DNA of 64,000 bases, taken from Salinivirgaceae bacterium. GTDB lineage: Bacteria; Bacteroidota; Bacteroidia; Bacteroidales; SZUA-534. A program made the translations under genes and the position numbers. Of this stretch, positions 6,510 through 18,593 are shown piece by piece (positions within the stretch are counted from its first letter, which is position 1; the number at the start of each line of letters is the position of its first letter). The notes under the pieces are model-generated. The model did no database searches and was not told where the DNA came from. It saw nothing but the letters and a program-made list of their open reading frames with translations. The stretch covers positions 128,001-192,000 of the forward strand of contig JAKSOL010000001.1 of NCBI GenBank assembly GCA_024405635.1. Reading direction: 5' to 3'.

Positions 6510-8165
6510 TTATATTTGATAGATAAAGCGTTTGATGCTCTTTTTAGGAGTTTTTTCAAACTCTTCGTTGTAAATCTTAACACCAGCAATTTGGCTGAAG
6601 TTTGGAAGATCTTTGTTTAGTTGGAACACCAATTGCTCAATTGTAGTTTTAATGTCGTTGTCGTGAATACCTTGTTGAGTAAGTGCTTCAAAATCAGGAT
6701 AAATCAAGGCGTAAAGTTTTCCATCTTTTTCAGCAACAATCGATTCGGTAACATAGAACAAGTTGTTGATGCGATCCTCAATCTCTTCGGGGTAAATGTT
6801 TTGTCCGCTAGGACCAAGAATCATATTCTTGCTACGACCTTTGATAAATACGTTGCCATCTTTGTCCATAAGGGCAAGGTCGCCAGTGTGGCCCCAACCT
6901 TCAGAGTCAATGAATTGTTTTGTAGCTGCTTCGTTTTTGTAGTAGCCAATCATCATATTGGTACCGCGTGCAAGAATTTCGCCTGGAATATTCTCTGGGT
7001 CGCTTGAGTCGATTTTAATTTCCATGCGTTCAACAGGGCGGCCGCACGAACCTTTTGCAAAGGTGCTCCAATCGGAGAATGTTAAAATTGGCGCAAACTC
7101 GGTCATGCCGTAACCTACGGTGTATTCAAACTTAATTTTCTTCAAAAAGTCTTCAATACCTTGGTTTAGTGGAGCACCACCAATAATAACCTCTTTAAAA
7201 TTGCCACCCAAAGCCTCGCGTACTTTTGAGCGTATATTGCTGTAAATCTTATCGTTAATTACAGGAATGTTTAGCATAAAGTTGATAATTGGACGCTCGA
7301 TTTGTGGGAATACTTTCTTGCGGATAATCTTTTCAAGAATAAGTGGAACCGAGATGATAAGGTCTGGTTTAACTTCAGCAAATGCATCGGTAATGATTTT
7401 TGGCGATGGGGTACGAGTTAAGAAATAAATGTGAGTACCAACACCAAATCCATAAAGGAACTCAAATGCTAAACCGTACATGTGTGCCATTGGTAGAATT
7501 GACACTAACTTTTGTCCGCTCTCGCTGCCAATTGCGTTTACTGCAAATACATAGTTTGAATATAGCGTGCGGAATGGAAGCATAACGCCCTTTGATGCGC
7601 TTGTTGTTCCCGATGTGTAGTTGATTAGTGCAAGATCTTCCCAGTTTTCGGCTGCAAGACTAAAGTCGTTTGGTAGGAACTTGTGTGGGAAACGTTGTGC
7701 AAACATCAAGTTTAGGTTGTTGCGCGCATAGGTTAGTTTTTCGTTGCGCGATACGCGGATTTCATAATCTTCCATGCGTATAATGCCTAATAAATCAGGC
7801 ATTGAAGCTTCATCTAGTCCGCTCCAAACATTGTCGCCAACAAATAGCAAGCGCGACTCGCTATGGTTAACAATGTGATGAATGTTATCGGGTTTGAATT
7901 CGCTCAAAATAGGTACGGCAACTGCTCCATACGACAATGTTGCCAAAAAGGCTATGCCCCAAGCCGATGAGTTGCGGCTACATAGTGCAATGCGGTCGCC
8001 TTTTTCTATACCGCACTCTTCAAACAAAATGTGAAGTTTCACAATTTGGCGAGCAACATCGCGGTATGTGTTGGTTGTTCCTTGATAATCGGTAAGTGAA
8101 GGTTTACCCCAATTGTCTCGAATGGTTTTTTCGAAGACGGTCATGAGGTTGCTATTCATTTCCAT
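6510..8165 (-). CDS. Long-chain fatty-acid--CoA ligase (AMP-binding family)
   Basis: YTSGTTSASKG P-loop, GYGMTE, TGDL, and GRSKNMILGPSGQNIYPEEIE motifs. Confidence 0.92.
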   Translation of the reverse strand: MEMNSNLMTVFEKTIRDNWGKPSLTDYQGTTNTYRDVARQIVKLHILFEECGIEKGDRIALCSRNSSAWGIAFLATLSYGAVAVPILSEFKPDNIHHIVNHSESRLLFVGDNVWSGLDEASMPDLLGIIRMEDYEIRVSRNEKLTYARNNLNLMFAQRFPHKFLPNDFSLAAENWEDLALINYTSGTTSASKGVMLPFRTLYSNYVFAVNAIGSESGQKLVSILPMAHMYGLAFEFLYGFGVGTHIYFLTRTPSPKIITDAFAEVKPDLIISVPLILEKIIRKKVFPQIERPIINFMLNIPVINDKIYSNIRSKVREALGGNFKEVIIGGAPLNQGIEDFLKKIKFEYTVGYGMTEFAPILTFSDWSTFAKGSCGRPVERMEIKIDSSDPENIPGEILARGTNMMIGYYKNEAATKQFIDSEGWGHTGDLALMDKDGNVFIKGRSKNMILGPSGQNIYPEEIEDRINNLFYVTESIVAEKDGKLYALIYPDFEALTQQGIHDNDIKTTIEQLVFQLNKDLPNFSQIAGVKIYNEEFEKTPKKSIKRFIYQI

Positions 8166-8419
8166 GTTAATTAGTTTTTTAGTGTTACGAGATTGTTTTA
8201 TGCAACTATTGTTCCAAAATCAATCGATGGATTGATGGCGAATGTTAAAAGTGCATGCTTTGGGGTGGGTGAATGTTGTAAGTTGTTGTTAATTAGTATG
8301 TTGATGCGTTAGGGGGAGATGATAAAAAACGTTTTGTCGCTCTTTTTTTTGTTTGCTGAATTTGTTTTGATGTGTGCAGTTAAACCACGATACAAACACA
8401 ATTTCCCATATTAACGCCC

Positions 8420-8599
8420 GTAGAGACGCGGCATGCCACGTCTCATTGTATTTTTTTTGGGGGAGATGGCGTGTGCCATTTCTGTGTTTGGTGAAAATCC
8501 GTTGGTATTTGGAGACGCCGCGTGCGACGTCTCTACAAACGCAACATGCCACATCTCATTGTATTGGTTTTTGGGAGATGGCGTGTGTAACGTTTTTAC
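8420..8599. repeat. Cluster of GTAG-type REP-like palindromes (about 5 copies, two well preserved)
   Basis: GTAGAGACGCGGCATGCCACGTCTC (8420-8444) and the inverted GAGACGCCGCGTGCGACGTCTCTAC (8512-8536), plus degenerate copies. A unit of about 49 bp repeats at 8426-8474 and 8539-8587. Confidence 0.75.
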
Positions 8600-8606
8600 A
8601 GGAAAC

Positions 8607-8641
8607 AAAAAAAGGCATTGCCGTGAGTTGACAATGCCTTT
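8607..8641 (-). terminator. Intrinsic terminator of paralog A
   Basis: AAAGGCATTG-N11-CAATGCCTTT preceded by an A-run, 24 bp past the stop codon. Confidence 0.75.
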
Positions 8642-8664
8642 GTATGGTTGCGGTTTACGTTATT

Positions 8665-11600
8665 CTATTGTTCGCAAACTGGGCGCACAGAGTAACCGTA
8701 GCATCGATATTCTCTGTTAATTTTTAAATCATTCATCTCTATAACCAAGTACGTCGCTTCAAATGCGCTGTAGCCTATTGAACGTGACCCATAGATGCCG
8801 CAAGTGGTGTATTTGGCTGTTTTTCTTATGCAGCCTGCTATAGGAAGAAAAATATGCTTATCATCAATAGTGTATTCGGTCGTTGATTTTTCGCTGCTTT
8901 TTAAAACCCTTTTGCCCATGTCGGCAGAGTCCTTCGCCTTATAGACAATATATCCATTAACTTTTTTGCCGTTGTATGATTCGGTAAATTCCCAATAGCA
9001 GGTGTTGTAGAGTTCCTCCAGTTGATCGTATGTCGGCATTTTCCAATTGCCGCCCCATGTCTGCACGGCTACATCATCGTCATCGTCAAGTTCTTTCTTA
9101 TCGTCAATAATTGAGCCATAACGGTCGTTATACTTGGTTAGAGTGTTATAGGTACCTTCACTCCATTTGTATGTGCTCCAGTCGTATCCAACCGAATAGC
9201 CATCTTTCCATGTCGGTTCGTCTGTGTTGCCGCCTGCTGAATAGTGAGTCTCAGTCTCACCCCATGCGTAGTAGTCGCCAAATTCTTCGGGGGTGTTAGC
9301 TCCTATGTTAGTGGTTGCCCAAAGGGTGCCGCTTGGCAGTTCAAGGTCAACATATTCAGGCTCTTTTATGGTTGTAAACTCAAAAGTTTTGCTTTTTAAT
9401 GTGATGTTGTTGTAATCAATTTGGGTGTAGTATTGGTATTTAGTCTCTGGGGTTAAGTCAGTTAAAACAAATACAAAGTTTGAGTCGTTAAGCTCTTGTG
9501 TTTGCCAATCTTCTGACGATGTTTTGTAGTATATTGAATATTTGGCACCATCGAGACTTGTAGTTTCAAGTTTTATGCGTGCTTGGTTGAAACCAACAGA
9601 TGCTGAACTTGTTTGCGGGATATTAATAACTGGGCGCACAGAGAACCCAGCGCTGCGATCGTAGTCGGATAAACTCACGTTGCTCGCGCTGAAGTCCAAG
9701 TAGTACGCGGCGTCGGATTCGTCCGCGCTGAGCGAACGCGACCAGTAGCAGCCGTTGTAGGCATGGAGATTCATATCCCAATAGCCAGCGACAGGAAGGA
9801 AAATAAAGTTGTCGTTCACGCGGCTCTTTACCTTATAGCCATAGACATCGTTTATTGATGTCCATTCCCAGTCGCACTCATTACGGAGTTCGTCCTGCTG
9901 TGTCTTGGTAGGCATCTTCCACGCTCCGCCCCATGCCTGTGCAGCTGCGTCGTCAGCATCTTCGAACTCGGTTTTGTTGTCAACAGTACCGTATGAACTG
10001 CTTGTGCAATATTTGGTCATTGTTGATGACGAATCATAGTACCACTTGTATGTGCTCCAGTTGTACTCACTTTTTGCTTCAGTTTCGCCCCAAGCAAAAA
10101 AGTTGCCTGCATCTTCGGGATTAAATGCTCCAACGTTGGTTGTTGCCCAAAGAGTGCCGCTTGGTAGTCCAAGGTCAATATACTCAGGTTCATTTGTGGT
10201 TGTGAATTTTAATGTGTCGCTGGTGTATGTGCGGTTGCGGTAATTAACTTGGGTGTAGTATTGGTACTCAGTGTTGCTGGTTAAGTCAGTCAAAACAAAT
10301 ACAAAGTTTGTGTCGTTAAGCTCTTGTGTTTGCCAATTTTCTAACGATTCTGTTTTGTAGTATATTGAATATTTGGCACCGTTGAGACTTGTAGTTTCAA
10401 GTTTAACGCGGGCTTGGTTGTAACCAATGGTTACAGTGCTTGTTTGCGGAATACTAATTTCTTTGTACTGAACTGGGCGAACAAACATGGGCACTGTATC
10501 AACTTCGCTAATTAAAATTTTGTACTGCCAATTTTCTTCTTTGGCAGTTTTCCTGAAGGTTAGATATTTGCGAGAATTGGTTTTTTCGTCAATTGTCGAT
10601 GTCCAATAGTTGCCGTAATAGAAATTGTTTTCGTAAGTGAATTTATCTGCGCGGAAGTAAATAGAATTGCCTTCGTATCCCTCAATTTTGCTAGTTACTT
10701 TATATCCTAACGTGGTGTGATAATCTGGGGTGTAGCTAATTAATTCCCATTCACAATATTTTTCGTTAAATAAATCTGCAAAATCTTCTGCGCTAGGCAA
10801 ACTCCAGTTTTCGTTCAATTCTTTTGATAGATATTCATTTCCTTCTTCGTAATTGTTGTCGGCGCCAATGTTGGTGGTTGCCCAAAGTGTGCCGCTTGGT
10901 AGTCCAAGGTCAACATATTCAATTTTAGGATTACGATTAACCTTCACTTTATACTCAACAACATCGCAAGTGTCGTATCGTTGAGTGTCTCCAGTGCCGC
11001 TGTATATAACTGGCTGAATTACAATAGTTACCGAGTCGTCTTTGTCGGCATATTGTTTTATGCTCGATTGATAGTCAATTGACAATGTGGCATTTTTTTC
11101 GCTTTGTTCAGTACCATAAATTGATAATGCACTGTCGTCTTCAATAAGAGTAATTTCAGAAATGGCATCTTCGTATAGTCGTGTTTGTTTAATTTTTACT
11201 GATGCTGAAACTAATGCCAATGCCTCATCTCCATCGTTAAGTGCGGTTATTTTTTGCGAAGGAACAAGTTCAAAACGCAGACCAATTATACCAGTGTTAA
11301 CTCCTTCTTCATTGTTCCAACTTTCCAATAGCTTTAAGTTTGGATTTTCGGGAATACCTAAAACTCCAACCTCTCCGGTTTCGGTTACAACCTTTTCGGT
11401 AGCAACCACTTCTTCAACAGTAAAAGTAACGCTGTCGGTGCTAACAACCATAAGTTGCACTTGAGGTTCGTCAACCTTGGCAATTGCAAAAGTAGCATTG
11501 TCGTTTAGGTAAATGCGGGTGCTGTCGGCCGAAAGGGTAAAGTAGTCGCGTTCGCTGGTTGTGTTTTTAGCGCCGCTGCGTCCACGTACAGCAAAAGCCG

Positions 11601-12465
11601 ATTTTGCAGCTTTTGACTCGTCGGTGTTAACGTAAATAACTGTGCCGGTAGCATCAATTTTAAAAGTTACGTTTGATTTAGCGCCGCTGCGTCCGCGCAC
11701 TGCAAAGGCCGATTTTGCAGCTTTTGAGTCTTCGTCGTCAATGTAAACAACGGTGCCGTTGGCATCAACCACAAAACTATCGTCGCCACCTTTAGCGCCG
11801 CTGCGTCCACGCACTGCAAAGGCCGATTTTGCGGCTTTCGATTCGTCGTCGTTAACATAAACGGTTGTACCATCGCTGTTTACAACCAAAATATCTTCGG
11901 TGCTTTTAGCTCCGCTACGTCCGCGAACAGCAAAAGCCGATTTTGCAGCTTTTGAGTCGTTGGCGTCAATGTAAACAGTTGCGCCGTTTTCGGTAATTTC
12001 AAACACAACATCGCCGTTTGCGTTAACCACGCTGAATATTGAACCGGTTGTGTTGCCGTCGGCTTGTATGGCTTTTGGGTATTGTGCAGCGTACAAAGCG
12101 TAAGGAACGGCATTTAGTTTGTTGGTTATCATTGCGCCAAAGTTTGACCCGTTTTTCAAATCGAACTCAAGGCCAATGTTTAAGTTCATTTTGCTCCAAG
12201 GTATAGCGTCAAAACTGCCTGCAAGAGCATTGCCCATGCCAACATTTAGCGAAACGTGACCAAAGGAGTTGGTTTTAACCGATTGCAGTTCTTTGTAGCA
12301 AACCGAATCGTTTGCCAAAATGCTGATGCGCACTGCAACTTGTTGGTTGCTTACAACAGCTTGGTTAGCATCGCGCACAACTGCTTGATATACAAAACTT
12401 TTTTGAGCAAAAGAGTGGCTTAAAACACCGCAAAGCATTAGAGCCAGCAAAAGGATTTTTTTCAT
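8665..12465 (-). CDS. Secreted modular surface protein, paralog A: conserved N-domain, 4x SKAAKSAFAVRGRSGAK repeats, 3 tip domains (DUF1566/Fib_succ_major-like), 2 FN3-like spacers
   Basis: SPI-type signal peptide, N-domain YQAVVRD...AVPYALYA, three Y(V/I)DL(G/E)LPSGTLWATTN...VRPV domains separated by two similar spacers of about 90 aa. The fold assignment is inference from motifs. Confidence 0.8.
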   Translation of the reverse strand: MKKILLLALMLCGVLSHSFAQKSFVYQAVVRDANQAVVSNQQVAVRISILANDSVCYKELQSVKTNSFGHVSLNVGMGNALAGSFDAIPWSKMNLNIGLEFDLKNGSNFGAMITNKLNAVPYALYAAQYPKAIQADGNTTGSIFSVVNANGDVVFEITENGATVYIDANDSKAAKSAFAVRGRSGAKSTEDILVVNSDGTTVYVNDDESKAAKSAFAVRGRSGAKGGDDSFVVDANGTVVYIDDEDSKAAKSAFAVRGRSGAKSNVTFKIDATGTVIYVNTDESKAAKSAFAVRGRSGAKNTTSERDYFTLSADSTRIYLNDNATFAIAKVDEPQVQLMVVSTDSVTFTVEEVVATEKVVTETGEVGVLGIPENPNLKLLESWNNEEGVNTGIIGLRFELVPSQKITALNDGDEALALVSASVKIKQTRLYEDAISEITLIEDDSALSIYGTEQSEKNATLSIDYQSSIKQYADKDDSVTIVIQPVIYSGTGDTQRYDTCDVVEYKVKVNRNPKIEYVDLGLPSGTLWATTNIGADNNYEEGNEYLSKELNENWSLPSAEDFADLFNEKYCEWELISYTPDYHTTLGYKVTSKIEGYEGNSIYFRADKFTYENNFYYGNYWTSTIDEKTNSRKYLTFRKTAKEENWQYKILISEVDTVPMFVRPVQYKEISIPQTSTVTIGYNQARVKLETTSLNGAKYSIYYKTESLENWQTQELNDTNFVFVLTDLTSNTEYQYYTQVNYRNRTYTSDTLKFTTTNEPEYIDLGLPSGTLWATTNVGAFNPEDAGNFFAWGETEAKSEYNWSTYKWYYDSSSTMTKYCTSSSYGTVDNKTEFEDADDAAAQAWGGAWKMPTKTQQDELRNECDWEWTSINDVYGYKVKSRVNDNFIFLPVAGYWDMNLHAYNGCYWSRSLSADESDAAYYLDFSASNVSLSDYDRSAGFSVRPVINIPQTSSASVGFNQARIKLETTSLDGAKYSIYYKTSSEDWQTQELNDSNFVFVLTDLTPETKYQYYTQIDYNNITLKSKTFEFTTIKEPEYVDLELPSGTLWATTNIGANTPEEFGDYYAWGETETHYSAGGNTDEPTWKDGYSVGYDWSTYKWSEGTYNTLTKYNDRYGSIIDDKKELDDDDDVAVQTWGGNWKMPTYDQLEELYNTCYWEFTESYNGKKVNGYIVYKAKDSADMGKRVLKSSEKSTTEYTIDDKHIFLPIAGCIRKTAKYTTCGIYGSRSIGYSAFEATYLVIEMNDLKINREYRCYGYSVRPVCEQ
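11566..11959 (-). repeat. Four coding repeats (SKAAKSAFAVRGRSGAK), period 111-114 bp; same array at 16288-16681
   Basis: On the plus strand TTTAGCNCCGCT units begin at 11566, 11677, 11791 and 11905. Confidence 0.9.
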
Positions 12466-12547
12466 TTTATATAGTACTTATAAATGCGGCCCAAAGTTAA
12501 TTCAATTATTAGAATTGAGGATTGAAAATATGACTTATGTCAATGAA
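11615..12547. repeat. Direct repeat copy 1 (about 933 bp, identical to 16337-17269 by eye)
   Basis: Offset is 4722 bp. Main-frame and alternative-frame ORF translations are identical. Nearest mismatches are at 11614/16336 and 12548/17270. Confidence 0.9.
12492..12499 (-). promoter_or_regulatory. Bacteroidetes -7 box (TAACTTTG) for paralog A; identical copy at 17214-17221
   Basis: Matches TAnnTTTG, 27 bp upstream of the ATG. A TGAC-N4-GTCA palindrome lies at 12531-12542. Confidence 0.65.
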
Positions 12548-12607
12548 ATTTTTTGTGTTTTACACACAATGAAGTGGAGCCTTAGGCACCAAGTGAGGTT
12601 TAGACAT

Positions 12608-12658
12608 AAAAAATCCCAATTCCTAAAAAGCCGAGAGGCAATAAGGTAATTGGGATTT
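12608..12658 (-). terminator. Intrinsic terminator of thiC
   Basis: AAATCCCAATT...AATTGGGATTT stem with an A-run on the distal side. Confidence 0.7.
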
Positions 12659-12680
12659 GTGGGAAAAATGTAACAAGCCG

Positions 12681-14408
<1,728 letters not shown>

Positions 14409-14454
14409 TTATTTCAAAATGTCGTTTGTAGCATGCACTTTTATTTGTGCGGTT

Positions 14455-14462
14455 CAAAGGTA
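14455..14462 (-). promoter_or_regulatory. Putative -7 box (TACCTTTG) for thiC
   Basis: TAnnTTTG match about 70 bp upstream of the thiC ATG. The -33 element is weak. Confidence 0.5.
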
Positions 14463-14614
14463 ATTCGTTCGGTTGATTTATAGTTGCATTTTATTCACGT
14501 TTAGCAAACATGCGGTGTTAAATTATGGTTTGAGACGTGTTTTATGTTGTGTAATAGCTTGTTTGTGTCGATAACAAATGCCTTTGATATTTGTTTTTAA
14601 TTGTTAGCAAAACT

Positions 14615-14644
14615 AAAAAGCGAGACTTGTTGGCCTCGCTTTTT
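14615..14644 (-). terminator. Intrinsic terminator of paralog B
   Basis: AAAAAGCGAG-N10-CTCGCTTTTT, symmetric. Confidence 0.8.
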
Positions 14645-14673
14645 GTATTATTAACTGACTTGGTTATTATTTA

Positions 14674-17187
14674 CTAATGAACCCCTGCATTTAAATCCTC
14701 TGATGGAATTGGTGGGGTTAGAGAATGTATTTTAACTGGGCGAATTGGAATTCCGTATTTGCGATTAATGTGGTCGTTTTTAATTTCAGATTGCTCGAGG
14801 TATATTACTTTAGCATAATCTGAATAGCTTACAGATAGAGAATTTAACCAATAATAGTTGTTGTAACTTGCGATTTCTGTGTTAACGAAGTAATGTGCAG
14901 CGGGAAGGAAAATATGGGAATCACTTAAGCCGTATTCACCTGTTGGGTTAATCACCGAGTTACTATTTACTATTTTGCCTTTGTCGCTATCGTCTTTTGT
15001 TTGATAAACGATGAATCCTGATGTGTTTGTGTTGTTGTAATCGTTTGTCCACTCAAAATAGCAATTTCTAAGGAGCTCATTGAATTGTTCGTTTGTTGGC
15101 ATTTGCCAGCCGTCTCCCCATATTTGTGCGGCTGCGTCGTCTTCTTTTTCTAGTACAATTATGCTATCGCCAATAAAATTATTGTTTGAATCATACCATA
15201 TACCGTTATACTGGCCGTCTGCTGCCTGGTATTTATTCACGAAATTCCATTCAGATTTACCATCCTGCATGTGCTTATAGGTACTCCAAGAGTAGTTTTC
15301 TTTGGCTTCAGTTTCGCCCCAAGCAAAATAGTCGCCTGCATCTTCGGGATTTAATGCTCCAACGTTGGTTGTTGCCCAAAGAGTGCCGCTTGGTAGTCCA
15401 AAGTCAACATACTCAGGTTCATTAGTGGTTGTGAATTCTAATGTGTCGCTTTTAAATGTGCGGTTGCGGTATTCAATTTGGGTGTAGTATTTGTATTTAG
15501 TGTTGCTGGTTAAGTTAGTTAAAACAAATACAAAGTTTTCGTTTCCAAGTCCTTTTGATTGCCAATCTTCTGACGATGCAGCTTTGTAGTGTATTGAGTA
15601 TTCTGCGTCATTCAAACTTGAAGTTTCAAGTTTTATGCGAACTTGGTTGTATCCATTAGTTATTGTGCTTGTCTGCTTTATTCCTGCTTTACCATTAATC
15701 TTCAATTTGTATTCTATGCTTTGACAATCATAATTTTCGGCATCAGTAACACCAATACTTAATATTGGATGTATTAAAAGAGAAATATTTTCTTCTTCGT
15801 CAACATATTGCCCCGCGTATTCAATGTTATAACCAAAACTTAGCGTTGCTTGATTTCTGTTTGGGTCTAAATATGATGTTGTGTAATAAATAAAATTACT
15901 ATTTGTAGTGCTATCGGGCATTATTACAATGTTACAGTTGATATTTGCACTAATATTGTTTAGTGTAGGCACTTTTTGACAAGGAATGTAGTTGAATGTA
16001 ATGCAAACCTGTTTTTGGTTTACATCTAGACTATCAATTTCAATAGAGCTAATTGTAAAAGTAGGGTCTTTAGCAAGTCCAATAATTTCAACTTCTCCAG
16101 TTTCGGTTGCAATGTTTTCGGTAACAACCACTTCTTCAACAGTAAAGGTTACGCTATCGGTGCTTACGGCCATAAGTTGCACTTGAGGTTCGTCAACCTT
16201 GGCAATTGCAAAAGTGGCATCGTCGTTCAGGTAAATGCGGGTGCTATCGGCCGAAAGGGTAAAGTAGTCGCGTTCGTTGGTTGTGTTTTTAGCACCGCTG
16301 CGACCACGTACCGCAAAAGCCGATTTTGCAGCTTTCGACTCGTCGGTGTTAACGTAAATAACTGTGCCGGTAGCATCAATTTTAAAAGTTACGTTTGATT
16401 TAGCGCCGCTGCGTCCGCGCACTGCAAAGGCCGATTTTGCAGCTTTTGAGTCTTCGTCGTCAATGTAAACAACGGTGCCGTTGGCATCAACCACAAAACT
16501 ATCGTCGCCACCTTTAGCGCCGCTGCGTCCACGCACTGCAAAGGCCGATTTTGCGGCTTTCGATTCGTCGTCGTTAACATAAACGGTTGTACCATCGCTG
16601 TTTACAACCAAAATATCTTCGGTGCTTTTAGCTCCGCTACGTCCGCGAACAGCAAAAGCCGATTTTGCAGCTTTTGAGTCGTTGGCGTCAATGTAAACAG
16701 TTGCGCCGTTTTCGGTAATTTCAAACACAACATCGCCGTTTGCGTTAACCACGCTGAATATTGAACCGGTTGTGTTGCCGTCGGCTTGTATGGCTTTTGG
16801 GTATTGTGCAGCGTACAAAGCGTAAGGAACGGCATTTAGTTTGTTGGTTATCATTGCGCCAAAGTTTGACCCGTTTTTCAAATCGAACTCAAGGCCAATG
16901 TTTAAGTTCATTTTGCTCCAAGGTATAGCGTCAAAACTGCCTGCAAGAGCATTGCCCATGCCAACATTTAGCGAAACGTGACCAAAGGAGTTGGTTTTAA
17001 CCGATTGCAGTTCTTTGTAGCAAACCGAATCGTTTGCCAAAATGCTGATGCGCACTGCAACTTGTTGGTTGCTTACAACAGCTTGGTTAGCATCGCGCAC
17101 AACTGCTTGATATACAAAACTTTTTTGAGCAAAAGAGTGGCTTAAAACACCGCAAAGCATTAGAGCCAGCAAAAGGATTTTTTTCAT
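14674..17187 (-). CDS. Secreted modular surface protein, paralog B: same N-half as A, one FN3-like spacer, one tip domain
   Basis: First about 300 aa identical to 8665..12465, near-identical to about aa 365, then divergent. Contains YVDFGLPSGTLWATTNVGA...GIPIRPV. Confidence 0.8.
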   Translation of the reverse strand: MKKILLLALMLCGVLSHSFAQKSFVYQAVVRDANQAVVSNQQVAVRISILANDSVCYKELQSVKTNSFGHVSLNVGMGNALAGSFDAIPWSKMNLNIGLEFDLKNGSNFGAMITNKLNAVPYALYAAQYPKAIQADGNTTGSIFSVVNANGDVVFEITENGATVYIDANDSKAAKSAFAVRGRSGAKSTEDILVVNSDGTTVYVNDDESKAAKSAFAVRGRSGAKGGDDSFVVDANGTVVYIDDEDSKAAKSAFAVRGRSGAKSNVTFKIDATGTVIYVNTDESKAAKSAFAVRGRSGAKNTTNERDYFTLSADSTRIYLNDDATFAIAKVDEPQVQLMAVSTDSVTFTVEEVVVTENIATETGEVEIIGLAKDPTFTISSIEIDSLDVNQKQVCITFNYIPCQKVPTLNNISANINCNIVIMPDSTTNSNFIYYTTSYLDPNRNQATLSFGYNIEYAGQYVDEEENISLLIHPILSIGVTDAENYDCQSIEYKLKINGKAGIKQTSTITNGYNQVRIKLETSSLNDAEYSIHYKAASSEDWQSKGLGNENFVFVLTNLTSNTKYKYYTQIEYRNRTFKSDTLEFTTTNEPEYVDFGLPSGTLWATTNVGALNPEDAGDYFAWGETEAKENYSWSTYKHMQDGKSEWNFVNKYQAADGQYNGIWYDSNNNFIGDSIIVLEKEDDAAAQIWGDGWQMPTNEQFNELLRNCYFEWTNDYNNTNTSGFIVYQTKDDSDKGKIVNSNSVINPTGEYGLSDSHIFLPAAHYFVNTEIASYNNYYWLNSLSVSYSDYAKVIYLEQSEIKNDHINRKYGIPIRPVKIHSLTPPIPSEDLNAGVH

Positions 17188-17269
17188 TTTATATAGTACT
17201 TATAAATGCGGCCCAAAGTTAATTCAATTATTAGAATTGAGGATTGAAAATATGACTTATGTCAATGAA
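16337..17269. repeat. Direct repeat copy 2 (identical to 11615-12547 by eye)
   Basis: Includes the promoter, signal peptide and most of the repeat array. Confidence 0.9.
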
Positions 17270-17490
17270 TTTTTTTGTTATTAGATGCTTGCTTTTTTTT
17301 TAGTGGAGAATTTTGGGGTTTCTTTTGGGATAAACTAAAACTGTTATCGGCAATGTGCAGATATTCATGTTGTTAGGATAAACTGAAAGAGATAGTGTTT
17401 GAGGCGAGACAGACTTTTTTTTGAACATCTAAAAATGAGCAAGCATTGTCTGTTTAGTAAAGTAGCTAGGGTAGGGCCCATAAATAGCAA

Positions 17491-17523
17491 AACCCCCACT
17501 TAAACAATGATAAGTGGAGGTTT
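17491..17523 (-). terminator. Hairpin/terminator downstream of tRNA-Arg
   Basis: AACCCCCACTTA...TAAGTGGAGGTT stem next to an A-run. Confidence 0.6.
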
Positions 17524-17534
17524 AGAAAGTTTAG

Positions 17535-17608
17535 TGACCCCGGCGGGATTCAAACCCACAACCTTTTGATCCGTAGTCAAATGCTCTATTCAGTTGAGCT
17601 ACGGGGCC
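17535..17608 (-). tRNA. tRNA-Arg (anticodon ACG), CCA not encoded
   Basis: GGCCCCGTAGCTCAACTGAATAGAGCATTTGACT-ACG-GATCAAAAGGTTGTGGGTTTGAATCCCGCCGGGGTCA folds into a cloverleaf. Confidence 0.95.
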
Positions 17609-17705
17609 GAAACCGTTTGCAAAAGTAGTGTTTTTTCTTTACCACAATCACTTTACGGCAATTTTTTTTAAAATAATTTAAGTTATATATATAACTGCTT
17701 TATAA

Positions 17706-18593
17706 TCAGCAATTTATTTTCGCTCTCAAGCTATTGATTTTTTCAAATAAAGAGTCGCTTACAGGGGCTAAAGGCAAACGAACTTCGTTTTTTATCATTC
17801 CCATTTGAGTTAAATAGGCTTTTGCACCCGATGGACTGCCCTCGGCAAACAAGGTGTCTATAATGTCAAGGTATTGGTAGTGTATTGCTTTTGACTCTTC
17901 AAATTTTCCGTCAAGAGCTAAATGTACGACCTTGCTAAAGGCTGCTGGATATACGTTTTGTAAAACAGAAATTACACCATCAAATCCACAAGCTATAAGA
18001 GGAAGAGTAAGTGCATCGTCGCCCGATATGATTAGAAAGTCTTTTGGACGGCGAGCAGCAATTGCCATGCCTTGAGCTACATTGCCCGAAGCTTCTTTTA
18101 TGCCAATAATGTTTTTGCATTCGTTAGCAAGGCGAATAACTACGTCAACTGAAATGTTTATGCCTGTTCGCCCAGGTACATTATATAGAAGAATTGGTTT
18201 GCTTGTGCCGTTTGCTAGTGTTTTAAAGTGTTGATATACACCATTTTGGTTTGGCTTGTTATAGAAAGGTGCAACTGATAAAAATGCATCTATTCCATCA
18301 ACCTTTTCAAATTCTTGCATCATTTTTAGCACGTCGGCGGTGTTGTTTCCTCCGCAACCTACAACCAAAGGCACTCGTTTGTTGATTTTCTTGATAATGA
18401 AATCCAACAATTCATTTTTTTCTTGTGCCGACATTGTGGCAGGTTCGCCTGTGGTTCCAAGAGCTACAATGTAGTCGGTGCCGTTGTCAATTTGAAAATC
18501 AATTAGGTTGCTCAACGCATTGTAATCAATGCTGCCATCGGTATTGAAAGGGGTGATGAGCGCCACACCGACGCCCTTTAATCTATTTGTCAT
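17706..18593 (-). CDS. dapA: 4-hydroxy-tetrahydrodipicolinate synthase
   Basis: ALITPF, GTTGE, LYNVPGRTG, IGIKEASG (Schiff-base Lys) and SGDD. Confidence 0.96.
   Translation of the reverse strand: MTNRLKGVGVALITPFNTDGSIDYNALSNLIDFQIDNGTDYIVALGTTGEPATMSAQEKNELLDFIIKKINKRVPLVVGCGGNNTADVLKMMQEFEKVDGIDAFLSVAPFYNKPNQNGVYQHFKTLANGTSKPILLYNVPGRTGINISVDVVIRLANECKNIIGIKEASGNVAQGMAIAARRPKDFLIISGDDALTLPLIACGFDGVISVLQNVYPAAFSKVVHLALDGKFEESKAIHYQYLDIIDTLFAEGSPSGAKAYLTQMGMIKNEVRLPLAPVSDSLFEKINSLRAKINC

Follow-up and report, generated by a model that had tools for sequence, protein, structure and literature searches.

Introduction

The mosaic adhesive trimers (MAT) of Bdellovibrio bacteriovorus begin with a signal peptide and a β-rich N-domain of about 130 residues, which is reported to have no homologues in the PDB (Caulton et al. 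2024, PMC10769870). According to the same description, 13 members with and eight members without a Peptidase_S74 (S74) domain combine trimeric stalks with varied tips, among them a C-type lectin fold, and "tip swapping" has already been proposed for these fibres (PMC10769870). Lcl of Legionella is described as a DUF1566-bearing, C-type-lectin-like glycan-binding head on a trimeric stalk (PMC11162425). Here, we analyse a pair of genes, A and B, which flank thiC in a stretch of 64,000 nucleotides (the window; contig JAKSOL010000001.1, positions 128,001 to 192,000) from the Salinivirgaceae bacterium assembly GCA_024405635.1. The two genes probably encode paralogous secreted fibre adhesins without an S74 end, which form part of a branch of the MAT superfamily in Bacteroidota and were shaped by duplication and homologous recombination, with no dedicated switching machinery.

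A and B resemble the MAT fibres in several respects. The signal peptide precedes a conserved β-rich N-domain of about 115–130 residues, which is linked to the NCBIfam family Bdello_MAT_N. The stalk is trimeric (here by prediction), the base is constant and the adhesive domains at the C-terminus vary, a C-type lectin fold is found on one MAT tip, and S74 and non-S74 members occur together in one genome. In contrast, the host of A and B is a gut Bacteroidales and not a predator, the Bdello_MAT_N match reaches only 24–26 bits compared to a cut-off of 60, and the 38-residue repeat of the stalk is named in no library. Furthermore, one to three heads are strung on each chain behind FN3 domains, whereas the MAT fibre is described with one trimeric cap; no context of vesicles or prey is known for A and B. 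An earlier note on this DNA had proposed the pair as a candidate for an undescribed system. This view had to be given up, as the N-domain appears to be homologous to that of the MAT fibres and tip swapping has been suggested there.

With Lcl, A and B would share the layout of a secreted, surface-held trimeric adhesin with an N-terminal anchor, a repetitive stalk and a C-terminal head. Lcl differs by its collagen stalk, its amphipathic-helix anchor and its single trimeric head; moreover, the tips of A and B score only about 18 bits on Lcl_C (cut-off 34.9), and the tip profile finds no Lcl C-terminal domain (Lcl-CTD) in the PDB. Multi-copy Lcl_C, DUF8237 and Fib_succ_major proteins of Bacteroidota likewise commonly carry strings of heads separated by Ig-like spacers (3 to about 6 tips in the examples), but their spacers are Big_2, Flg_new or others, and most of them lack the fibre N-half. 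In the pilE/pilS system of Neisseria and the vlsE system of Borrelia, the gene that is expressed consists of a constant and a variable portion, conserved DNA flanks the variable cassettes, and variation results from gene conversion with silent cassettes. For A and B, we found no promoterless silent cassettes, no flanks of high identity on other tips, and no variation among the sampled strains. In a literature library lacking most subscription journals, no description of a MAT-like family of Bacteroidota was found, and the on-topic work on MAT was all on Bdellovibrio; a query for Peptidase_S74 with Bacteroid in the same library returned only fibres of extracellular contractile injection systems (eCIS).

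Genes A and B are mosaics of segments of different age and composition

The 5' ends of the two genes, comprising the signal peptide, the N-domain and the repeats, are 98.15% identical over 1190 bp. The earlier note had also claimed a shared promoter, which can be kept only in the sense that 90 of the 91 bases upstream of the ATG agree. The 22 differences in the block are one at position −82 and 21 at positions +852 to +1095. Hence, 932 bp (−81 to +851) are identical in A and B, and the following 244 bp diverge by 8.6%. At a uniform rate of differences, the chance of an identical run of 932 nt is 2.8e-8. Past codon 366, A and B cannot be aligned as DNA (blastn) until the FN3 spacers are reached. 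There, positions 10447–10072 of A and 15676–15301 of B match with 85.5% identity over 379 bp, which includes the similar joints that had been noted at 10075–10220 and 15305–15450. The identity is 77% for 9616–9251 of A versus 15676–15308 of B, and 80% for the two spacers inside A (10458–10079 versus 9627–9251). The 60-nt joint at the start of tip1 is 90% identical to the other joints.

The ages of these segments were compared by means of Nei-Gojobori estimates of synonymous (dS) and nonsynonymous (dN) divergence. For the 5' half (codons 1–345), dS is 0.043, and it is zero over codons 1–135. The three FN3 pairs yielded dS values of 0.37–0.47 and dN values of 0.17–0.24, with a proportion of synonymous differences (pS) of 0.29–0.35. 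The joint of the B tip versus that of tip2 of A has a dS of 0.20, compared to 1.4–2.1 for the other two joint pairs. The mid domains of A and B have a dS of 2.0, and the synonymous sites of the tip interiors are saturated, with pS values of 0.72–0.80 (0.70–0.80 if the mid domains are included). At the protein level, the FN3 domains are 65–72%, the joints 68–83% and the tip interiors 36–43% identical; every tip interior is at least as close to a stand-alone tip of the same genome on contig C36 (40–53%). The base composition varies as well, as the earlier note had seen for the tip interiors, whose GC content is 0.37–0.52 and whose GC content at third codon positions (GC3) is 0.38–0.62. By module, GC3 ranges from 0.22–0.27 in the mid domains to 0.62 in the interior of tip2. 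For comparison, the 150-codon windows of the genome have a mean GC3 of 0.392 (standard deviation 0.074, 5–95% range 0.273–0.507).

Since segments of different age and composition are combined in one gene, recombination is indicated, and on this sequence evidence A and B are recombinational mosaics formed over evolutionary time. The composition of tip2 looks foreign, its GC3 of 0.62 standing against 0.33–0.42 in the flanking FN3 domains. Many small stand-alone tips elsewhere reach 55–61% identity to tip2 and the C36 tip reaches 59%, as compared to 49% for tip3 and the B tip. Among 8000 scored candidates of 102–326 residues, no donor of tip2 with more than 61% protein identity was found. The search of family representatives was ranked by summed bits, which made multi-tip proteins the top 150 (the last row having 409 bits), so that this ranking could not surface a single-tip relative of tip2 at 60–95% identity.

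All four tips end in RPV, as had been noted before, and the corresponding 9-mer CGCCCAGTT (AACTGGGCG on the plus strand) occurs in the window only at these ends, i.e. at 8677, 9628, 10471 and 14734. CGC, CCA and GTT are the commonest Arg, Pro and Val codons of the genome (0.40, 0.48 and 0.50), and the expected share of CGCCCAGTT is 0.096. It also terminates two of the six other tips of this genome in alignment A1; a tip fragment on contig C12 has CGCCCTGTG. The 9-mer would thus be a weak recombination anchor.

A and B are predicted to encode trimeric fibres related to MAT

Our interpretation of the gene products is as follows. Each chain would start with a Sec signal peptide and the conserved β-rich N-domain, and would be displayed at the cell surface by analogy with MAT. 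The 38-residue repeats are predicted to form an intertwined homotrimeric stalk, which, if the model holds, would also assemble in the cell. A private mid domain would be followed by FN3-spaced heads, three per chain in A and one in B, which may act as C-type-lectin-like binders of ligands or glycans. The pair would have originated by a duplication around thiC and subsequent homologous recombination. A recent tract of gene conversion or duplication would keep the 5'-terminal 0.93–1.19 kb alike, an older tract would have distributed the FN3 spacers and the initial portion of one tip, or made them alike, and the tip interiors and mid domains would represent old, separate lineages; this is the order of events that we infer. 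As an architecture, the constant exported scaffold with variable distal heads that the earlier note had envisaged is supported, and the attribute "lectin-like" comes from weak sequence links. The structure predictions made since then gave an FN3 fold, a trimeric stalk model and a β-sandwich for the N-domain, but for the tips the lists of structural matches contained FN3 domains only.

With NCBIfam models, A and B matched only Bdello_MAT_N (24–26 bits, E values of 1e-5 to 2e-5); a C-terminal domain of the type IX secretion system (T9SS) was not listed. The same model matches 22 of the 23 members of the N-half alignment, which contains sequences of this genome and of relatives, with a best E value of 1.3e-12. 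Homology of the N-domain to that of the Bdellovibrio MAT fibres is therefore supported at the sequence level, albeit curated membership is not reached. The structural model of the N-domain is a β-sandwich with a predicted local distance difference test score (pLDDT) of about 90. Foldseek found no match at E ≤0.001, and the best VIA match (Z 6.8) was a generic β-sandwich.

The family is large. In the same genome, the N-domain is encoded in 9 open reading frames (ORFs) and the 38-residue repeat in 8. Among 13 family proteins of this genome, Pfam detected Peptidase_S74 in four, YadA_head in one and Collagen in one. A and B lack a Peptidase_S74 end according to Pfam, unlike the paralogues that carry this chaperone. 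The scan of species-representative genomes confirmed at least 596 stretches encoding relatives, and the best-matching ones are from metagenome-assembled genomes (MAGs) of Salinivirgaceae or Bacteroidales bacteria, many of them from ruminant foreguts. In 75 loci of other Bacteroidota genomes, 117 ORFs with an N-domain were found. For the 97 of them that are complete at the 3' end, an S74 end was seen in 54, a tip in 7, and something else in 36. The division into S74 and non-S74 forms corresponds to the one described for MAT (PMC10769870). Two or more such ORFs on one strand occur in 23 of the 75 loci, i.e. they form tandem arrays. Several fibre paralogues (C14:2–2917, C13:3–2597 and C3:42–956) run into contig ends inside their 38-residue repeats. 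The fibre family is one reason for the broken assembly, and the C14 and C13 paralogues may be the halves of one gene.

As a monomer, the stalk repeats were modelled with pLDDT values below 50. Folding three copies of residues 21–345 of B gave a score of 0.72 (0.72, 0.73 and 0.72 in individual runs), compared to 0.00 for the best of three controls. At least 93% of the contacts agreed between the runs, the pLDDT of the partner chains was at least 79, and contacts extended along residues 97–323. Of the calibration proteins, 20 of 30 with a structure solved as a one-chain pair and 1 of 23 with a single-chain structure passed the mark; these counts apply only roughly, as the trimer run had its own alignment and three copies. 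The model supports an intertwined homotrimer as the form of the stalk.

The heads are probable distant relatives of Lcl_C and Fib_succ_major domains

The earlier note had described the C-terminal halves as strings of FN3 and tip modules with three tips in A and one in B. This is correct with the exception of tip1 of A, which has no FN3 domain in front. For the FN3 and tip modules of B, an AlphaFold2 (AF2) model with a pLDDT of 85 and a predicted TM-score (pTM) of 0.75 was obtained. Its first 88 residues have the FN3 fold (VIA Z 13.1, root-mean-square deviation 2.1, 87 aligned residues, 1–87; Foldseek E 6e-6), and FN3-like models of Pfam match A and B only below their cut-offs. No other copy of the A/B spacer was found in this genome, in 82 homologue hits or in the 117 N-domain ORFs. 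Likewise, no other protein of the examined sets contained the mid domain of A and B, for which no Pfam model exceeded its cut-off and no named family was found.

For the tips, several sequence links point in the same direction. The Pfam family Lcl_C (PF07603, DUF1566) matches A with 18.4 bits and does not match B; at E ≤0.01, it matches 1 of 30 tips. Precomputed PF07603 annotations exist for 28 of the 82 homologue hits, and clusters of Lcl_C and DUF8237 are neighbours of the B tip in the Atlas at 0.95. Furthermore, the tip hidden Markov model (HMM) matches (iE 7.7e-5) inside the Fib_succ_major domain (97.7 bits) of a protein with an N-domain and collagen. These links are weak but consistent, and suggest that the tips are distant relatives of Lcl_C/DUF1566 and Fib_succ_major. 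In the literature on diversity-generating retroelements (DGRs), both are treated as C-type-lectin-type domains (PMC5758913). A protein of 827 residues from a marine Bacteroidetes MAG (L139:8776–11256) unites an N-domain with collagen repeats and an unambiguous Fib_succ_major domain; its arrangement resembles that of Lcl, built on a base of the MAT type.

The tip family is very large, with 29,612 representatives at 50% identity for E ≤0.001 and 6,389 at 1e-30; the best 150 of the 29,612 contain 3 to 13 matched tip stretches each. Fusions of the N-half with a tip also occur elsewhere (P0004, P0006, P0036), in addition to the seven tip-bearing ORFs among the 97 complete relatives. In a sister genus, all 8 genomes were matched (6–47 matches per genome), and giant ORFs with a fibre N-half and a tip were seen, namely G018:C8 (4986 residues), G018:C25 (4860 residues) and G009:C7 (4289 residues). 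The genome of A and B has at least six further tip genes. All four tips of A and B contain the motif WATTN, whereas nearly all other tips of this genome and of relatives contain WATCN. At the tip starts (about 10877–10921, 10142–10186, 9314–9358 and 15373–15417), a conserved cysteine has been lost.

The locus is stable in other samples and no shuffling machinery was found

The earlier note had interpreted the locus as a recombinational system for the shuffling of cassettes. Recombination is borne out by the mosaic of dS and GC3 values; for a dedicated system, there is no positive evidence, i.e. no sign of switching or programmed shuffling machinery: neither a recombinase, nor a reverse transcriptase, nor a silent cassette was found. 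In detail, no recombinase or phage gene was present among the 14 neighbouring proteins scanned. A search of the genome with RVT_1 had no match, and the same search found RVT_1 in 3 of 14 control genomes. No silent cassettes were found; the six other tip ORFs are complete genes and begin with segments that, judged by eye, are like signal peptides. The other tips of this genome are 66–80% identical to A and B at the DNA level over at most 190 nt, apart from a 45-nt joint with 91%. In a genome blastn search, none of the tip ends had a second or template-repeat-like copy.

The stretch is contained wholly or partly in nine listed runs, which come from five studies; it may derive from one of these runs, and the gut runs are from animals according to their records. 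Runs X6 and X7 contained small shares only. For the comparison of strains, contigs of four runs (X2, X3, X8, X9) from two other studies were used. Out of 30 bins, two were uncovered in X2, two in X8 and seven in X9, and these bins carry no information. Instead of swapped tips, for which the earlier note had suggested to look, the same tips at 99–100% identity (0–0.3% divergence) were found in the same order wherever contigs bridge. For example, a contig of X3 (8467–10153) bridges tip3, FN3 and tip2 with 2 differences in 1687 nt, and another one (10605–12546) extends from tip1 through the 5' end. In X2, there are 3 differences in 905 nt (9011–9915), and in X8, a contig without differences in 963 nt (14728–15690) bridges the tip of B and its FN3 domain. 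In X3, thiC has 34 differences in 1836 nt; for X2, the counts are 12 (655 nt) and 17 (847 nt). As thiC is more divergent between strains than the tips, the latter are not hypervariable among the compared strains. The contrast itself (about 1.8–2.0% for thiC in X2 and X3 versus 0–0.3% for the tip-coding parts 8467–10153 and 14561–15690) could result from mixed strains in the thiC contigs or from a recent sweep of the fibre genes. In X2, the shared 5' block (11411–12547) forms a separate contig of 1137 nt with a depth of 12.5, compared to 4–7 for its neighbours, the depths per contig being rough. This is as expected for two collapsed, near-identical copies, and the duplication is probably present in that strain, too.

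Three contig joints were considered as recombinants and rejected. The joint 8647>10877 agrees with the tip fragment on C12, as this fragment contains the joint together with a downstream region like that of A; for 10062>15292, the sides are 22 nt, and 16335>11566 lies inside the shared repeats. Every contig joint has a short side of 21–56 nt, and paralogues or repeats account for all of them. Loose contig ends lie at joints at 9354 (X8), 10921 (X9) and 15336 (X3). They are expected anyway, as the joint motif is common to thousands of tips (29,612 representatives).

Alternative explanations

A number of observations weigh against parts of our interpretation. The Bdello_MAT_N match lies below the NCBIfam cut-off, and A and B match no Pfam family at the gathering score. 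The result for the trimer may owe something to solved trimeric fibres. Searches with the FN3-tip model (Foldseek versus PDB, VIA-wide and BFVD) returned FN3 matches only, and the tip profile found nothing among the PDB sequences at E <0.55, Lcl-CTD included; "lectin-like" is thus suggested by weak sequence links and the literature. In the comparison of strains, the conserved joints are places where contigs end, and the junction of tip2 and FN3 spacer 1 of A is spanned by none of the pieces listed. Moreover, contigs drop rare variants, and loose ends at joints are indistinguishable from paralogues. With respect to the tips, the common motif WATTN fits a single origin followed by fast divergence, and in the 30-row tree, tip2 and tip3 are sisters (94/82). 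The earlier note had suggested to test module trees for incongruence. In the 47-row tree, from which tip1, C33 and C16_451 were omitted as long branches, a split with 97% support in the Shimodaira–Hasegawa-like approximate likelihood ratio test (SH-aLRT) parts tip2 from tip3 and the B tip. However, a common clade of the three FN3-linked tips is not rejected by the approximately unbiased (AU) test (p 0.134 and 0.249), i.e. the tree evidence for separate origins of the tips is not significant.

These tree results, together with the derived WATTN and the identical RPV codons of all four tips, are compatible with a simple duplication of an FN3-tip unit, after which the tips would have diverged fast under diversifying selection, with conservation of the FN3 spacers and without further recombination. 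We regard this course as unlikely. Selection on the protein leaves the synonymous contrast between the FN3 domains (pS 0.29–0.35) and the tip interiors (0.72–0.80) unexplained, and the same holds for the dS of 0.20 of one joint pair versus 1.4–2.1 of the others. The GC3 step at the borders of tip2 and the abrupt change from 932 identical base pairs to 8.6% divergence also speak against it. In addition, tip2 is closer to stand-alone tips than to tip3 and the B tip, and is parted from both in the larger tree. Duplication combined with homologous recombination is thus our preferred reading. It is conceivable, but distinctly unlikely, that the identical 5' half and the FN3-joint blocks are working anchors, which would allow head swapping at a low rate among A, B and the at least six stand-alone tip genes, with thiC as a lock that can be selected for and keeps the pair from collapsing.

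A programmed or frequent shuffling of cassettes via the joints and the 5' half, resulting in a phase-like or antigenic variation of the binding repertoire, would agree with the conserved blocks at the module borders, with direct repeats of 932 identical base pairs that are long enough for RecA-type exchange, with the further tip genes of the genome, with the resemblance (75–79%) of the 3' end and downstream region of A to three stand-alone tip genes, and with loose contig ends that start at joints. Nevertheless, it is very unlikely: no recombinase or invertase was found among the neighbours and no reverse transcriptase in the genome, other tips are complete genes with signal peptides and have at most about 80% DNA identity over at most 190 nt except for the 45-nt joint, no donor of tip2 above 61% was detected, the same tips were recovered from runs of two other studies, and the contig joints are explained by paralogues or repeats. 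Next to no weight can be given to a diversification of the heads by mutagenic retrohoming. DUF1566 and Fib_succ_major are a recognised class of DGR targets in the literature (PMC5758913), but RVT_1 is missing from this 99.78% complete genome, despite its detection in three control genomes, and a template-repeat-like copy of the tip ends was not found. That A and B are tail-fibre genes of a prophage or tailocin instead of cellular adhesins is highly improbable, too. It is true that an S74 paralogue matches PHROG families of tail spikes and tail fibres (best E 3e-37) and that some viral Atlas clusters lie near the tip. However, A and B match no PHROG family, a tblastn search with the N-half had no match in 50,697 phage records, and the tip matched only six Lak megaphage records with 31–33% identity. 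Furthermore, both proteins have Sec signal peptides, and the neighbours include ClpB, GH2, thiC, dapA and SecA.

The locus and its neighbourhood

The coordinates of the genes and their modules are given in Table 1.

Table 1. Positions of genes, modules and hairpins in the window.
Feature	Positions	Strand	Characteristics
Gene A	8665–12465	minus	ORF of 1266 aa; signal peptide, N-domain, 38-aa repeat stalk, mid, tip1, FN3, tip2, FN3, tip3
A, shared 5' block	11367–12556	minus	91 nt upstream plus codons 1–366; 98.15% to 16089–17278 over 1190 bp (blastn)
A, N-domain (aa 21–135)	12061–12405	minus	MAT-type, β-rich; Bdello_MAT_N match; β-sandwich model
A, stalk	11431–12060	minus	four 38-aa (114-nt) repeats ending ...SKAAKSAFAVRGRSGAK plus a degenerate fifth; self-matches at 114-nt offsets; family alignment A2
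A, mid domain (aa 346–515)	10921–11430	minus	homologous to B mid, an old relationship; phmmer 61 bits; dS 2.0; GC3 0.265
A, tip1 (aa 516–670)	10456–10920	minus	short (155 aa), divergent, without AWGET...DDAA stretch; 31–35% identity to other tips
A, FN3 spacer 1 (aa 671–760)	10186–10455	minus	65–72% aa identity among three FN3s
A, tip2 (aa 761–946)	9628–10185	minus	interior GC3 0.619; outside relatives at most 61% identical
A, FN3 spacer 2 (aa 947–1036)	9358–9627	minus	similar to other two FN3s
A, tip3 (aa 1037–1266)	8668–9357	minus	alignment A1
Terminator-like hairpin 3' of A	8611–8641	minus	
thiC	12681–14384	minus	ThiC_Rad_SAM E 4.7e-184; between A and B, between direct repeats
Gene B	14674–17187	minus	ORF of 837 aa; signal peptide, N-domain, 38-aa repeat stalk, mid, FN3, tip, 19-aa tail
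B, shared 5' block	16089–17278	minus	counterpart of A 11367–12556
B, N-domain	16783–17127	minus	same as A N-domain
B, stalk	16153–16782	minus	same repeats as A stalk
B, mid domain (aa 346–502)	15682–16152	minus	best Atlas match 0.79, no family; GC3 0.223
B, FN3 spacer (aa 503–590)	15418–15681	minus	AF2 pLDDT 85; FN3 fold matches
B, tip (aa 591–818)	14734–15417	minus	predicted α/β domain, pLDDT mostly ≥90
Terminator-like hairpin 3' of B	14615–14644	minus	resembles hairpin after A

The genome of 2.66 Mb is assembled into 36 contigs, which are labelled with C-numbers (G000) throughout. The neighbours of the pair are housekeeping genes, namely ClpB, an M23 peptidase, GH2, an AMP-binding enzyme, dapA, DUF6913 and SecA. 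A tRNA-Arg gene (17534–17608) is located upstream of B and is likewise followed by a terminator-like hairpin. As separate hairpins are found after A, B and the tRNA-Arg gene, A, thiC and B look like separate transcription units. An Rfam scan of 8000–18000 detected only a tRNA; neither a thiamine pyrophosphate (TPP) riboswitch nor any other family reached the gathering score upstream of thiC (14385–14673). A sigma-70 scan yielded 22 sites with 19.0 expected, which carries no information, and the coverage of the model does not extend to Bacteroidota promoters.

Some further elements were observed. A 16-nt inverted repeat (17285–17300/17431–17446, 88% complementary) flanks 130 nt between the tRNA-Arg gene and the shared block of B; it is short and A/T-rich and may be due to chance. 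No strand-changing joint at this repeat was listed in the compared contigs of other runs. Two copies of a palindromic GTAGAGACG...CGTCTC-type element, 113 nt apart, are located 3' of A (8414–8587). The end of A and the region downstream (8507–8692) are 75–79% identical to the regions after three stand-alone tip genes (C23:176990–177179, C12:152150–152317 and C16:6953–7047), and the tip genes therefore share a 3' flank in addition to the domain.

Significance

The idea of chimeric fibres, which by name has so far been confined to the MAT of Bdellovibrio, is extended by these genes to Bacteroidota of gut and environmental habitats, where the family is large and often arranged in tandem. The A/B pair is a clean natural example of how fibres may gain heads, in which the stalk is young, the FN3 spacers are of intermediate age and the heads, which differ in composition, are old. 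No named family covers the stalk repeat or the mid domain. If the heads bind glycans, the two proteins would be candidates for adhesion to feed particles, to mucus or to other microbes of a rumen-type gut. If heads were indeed swapped at a low rate, the locus would represent a recombination-driven adhesin repertoire in a commensal family of MAT-type fibres.

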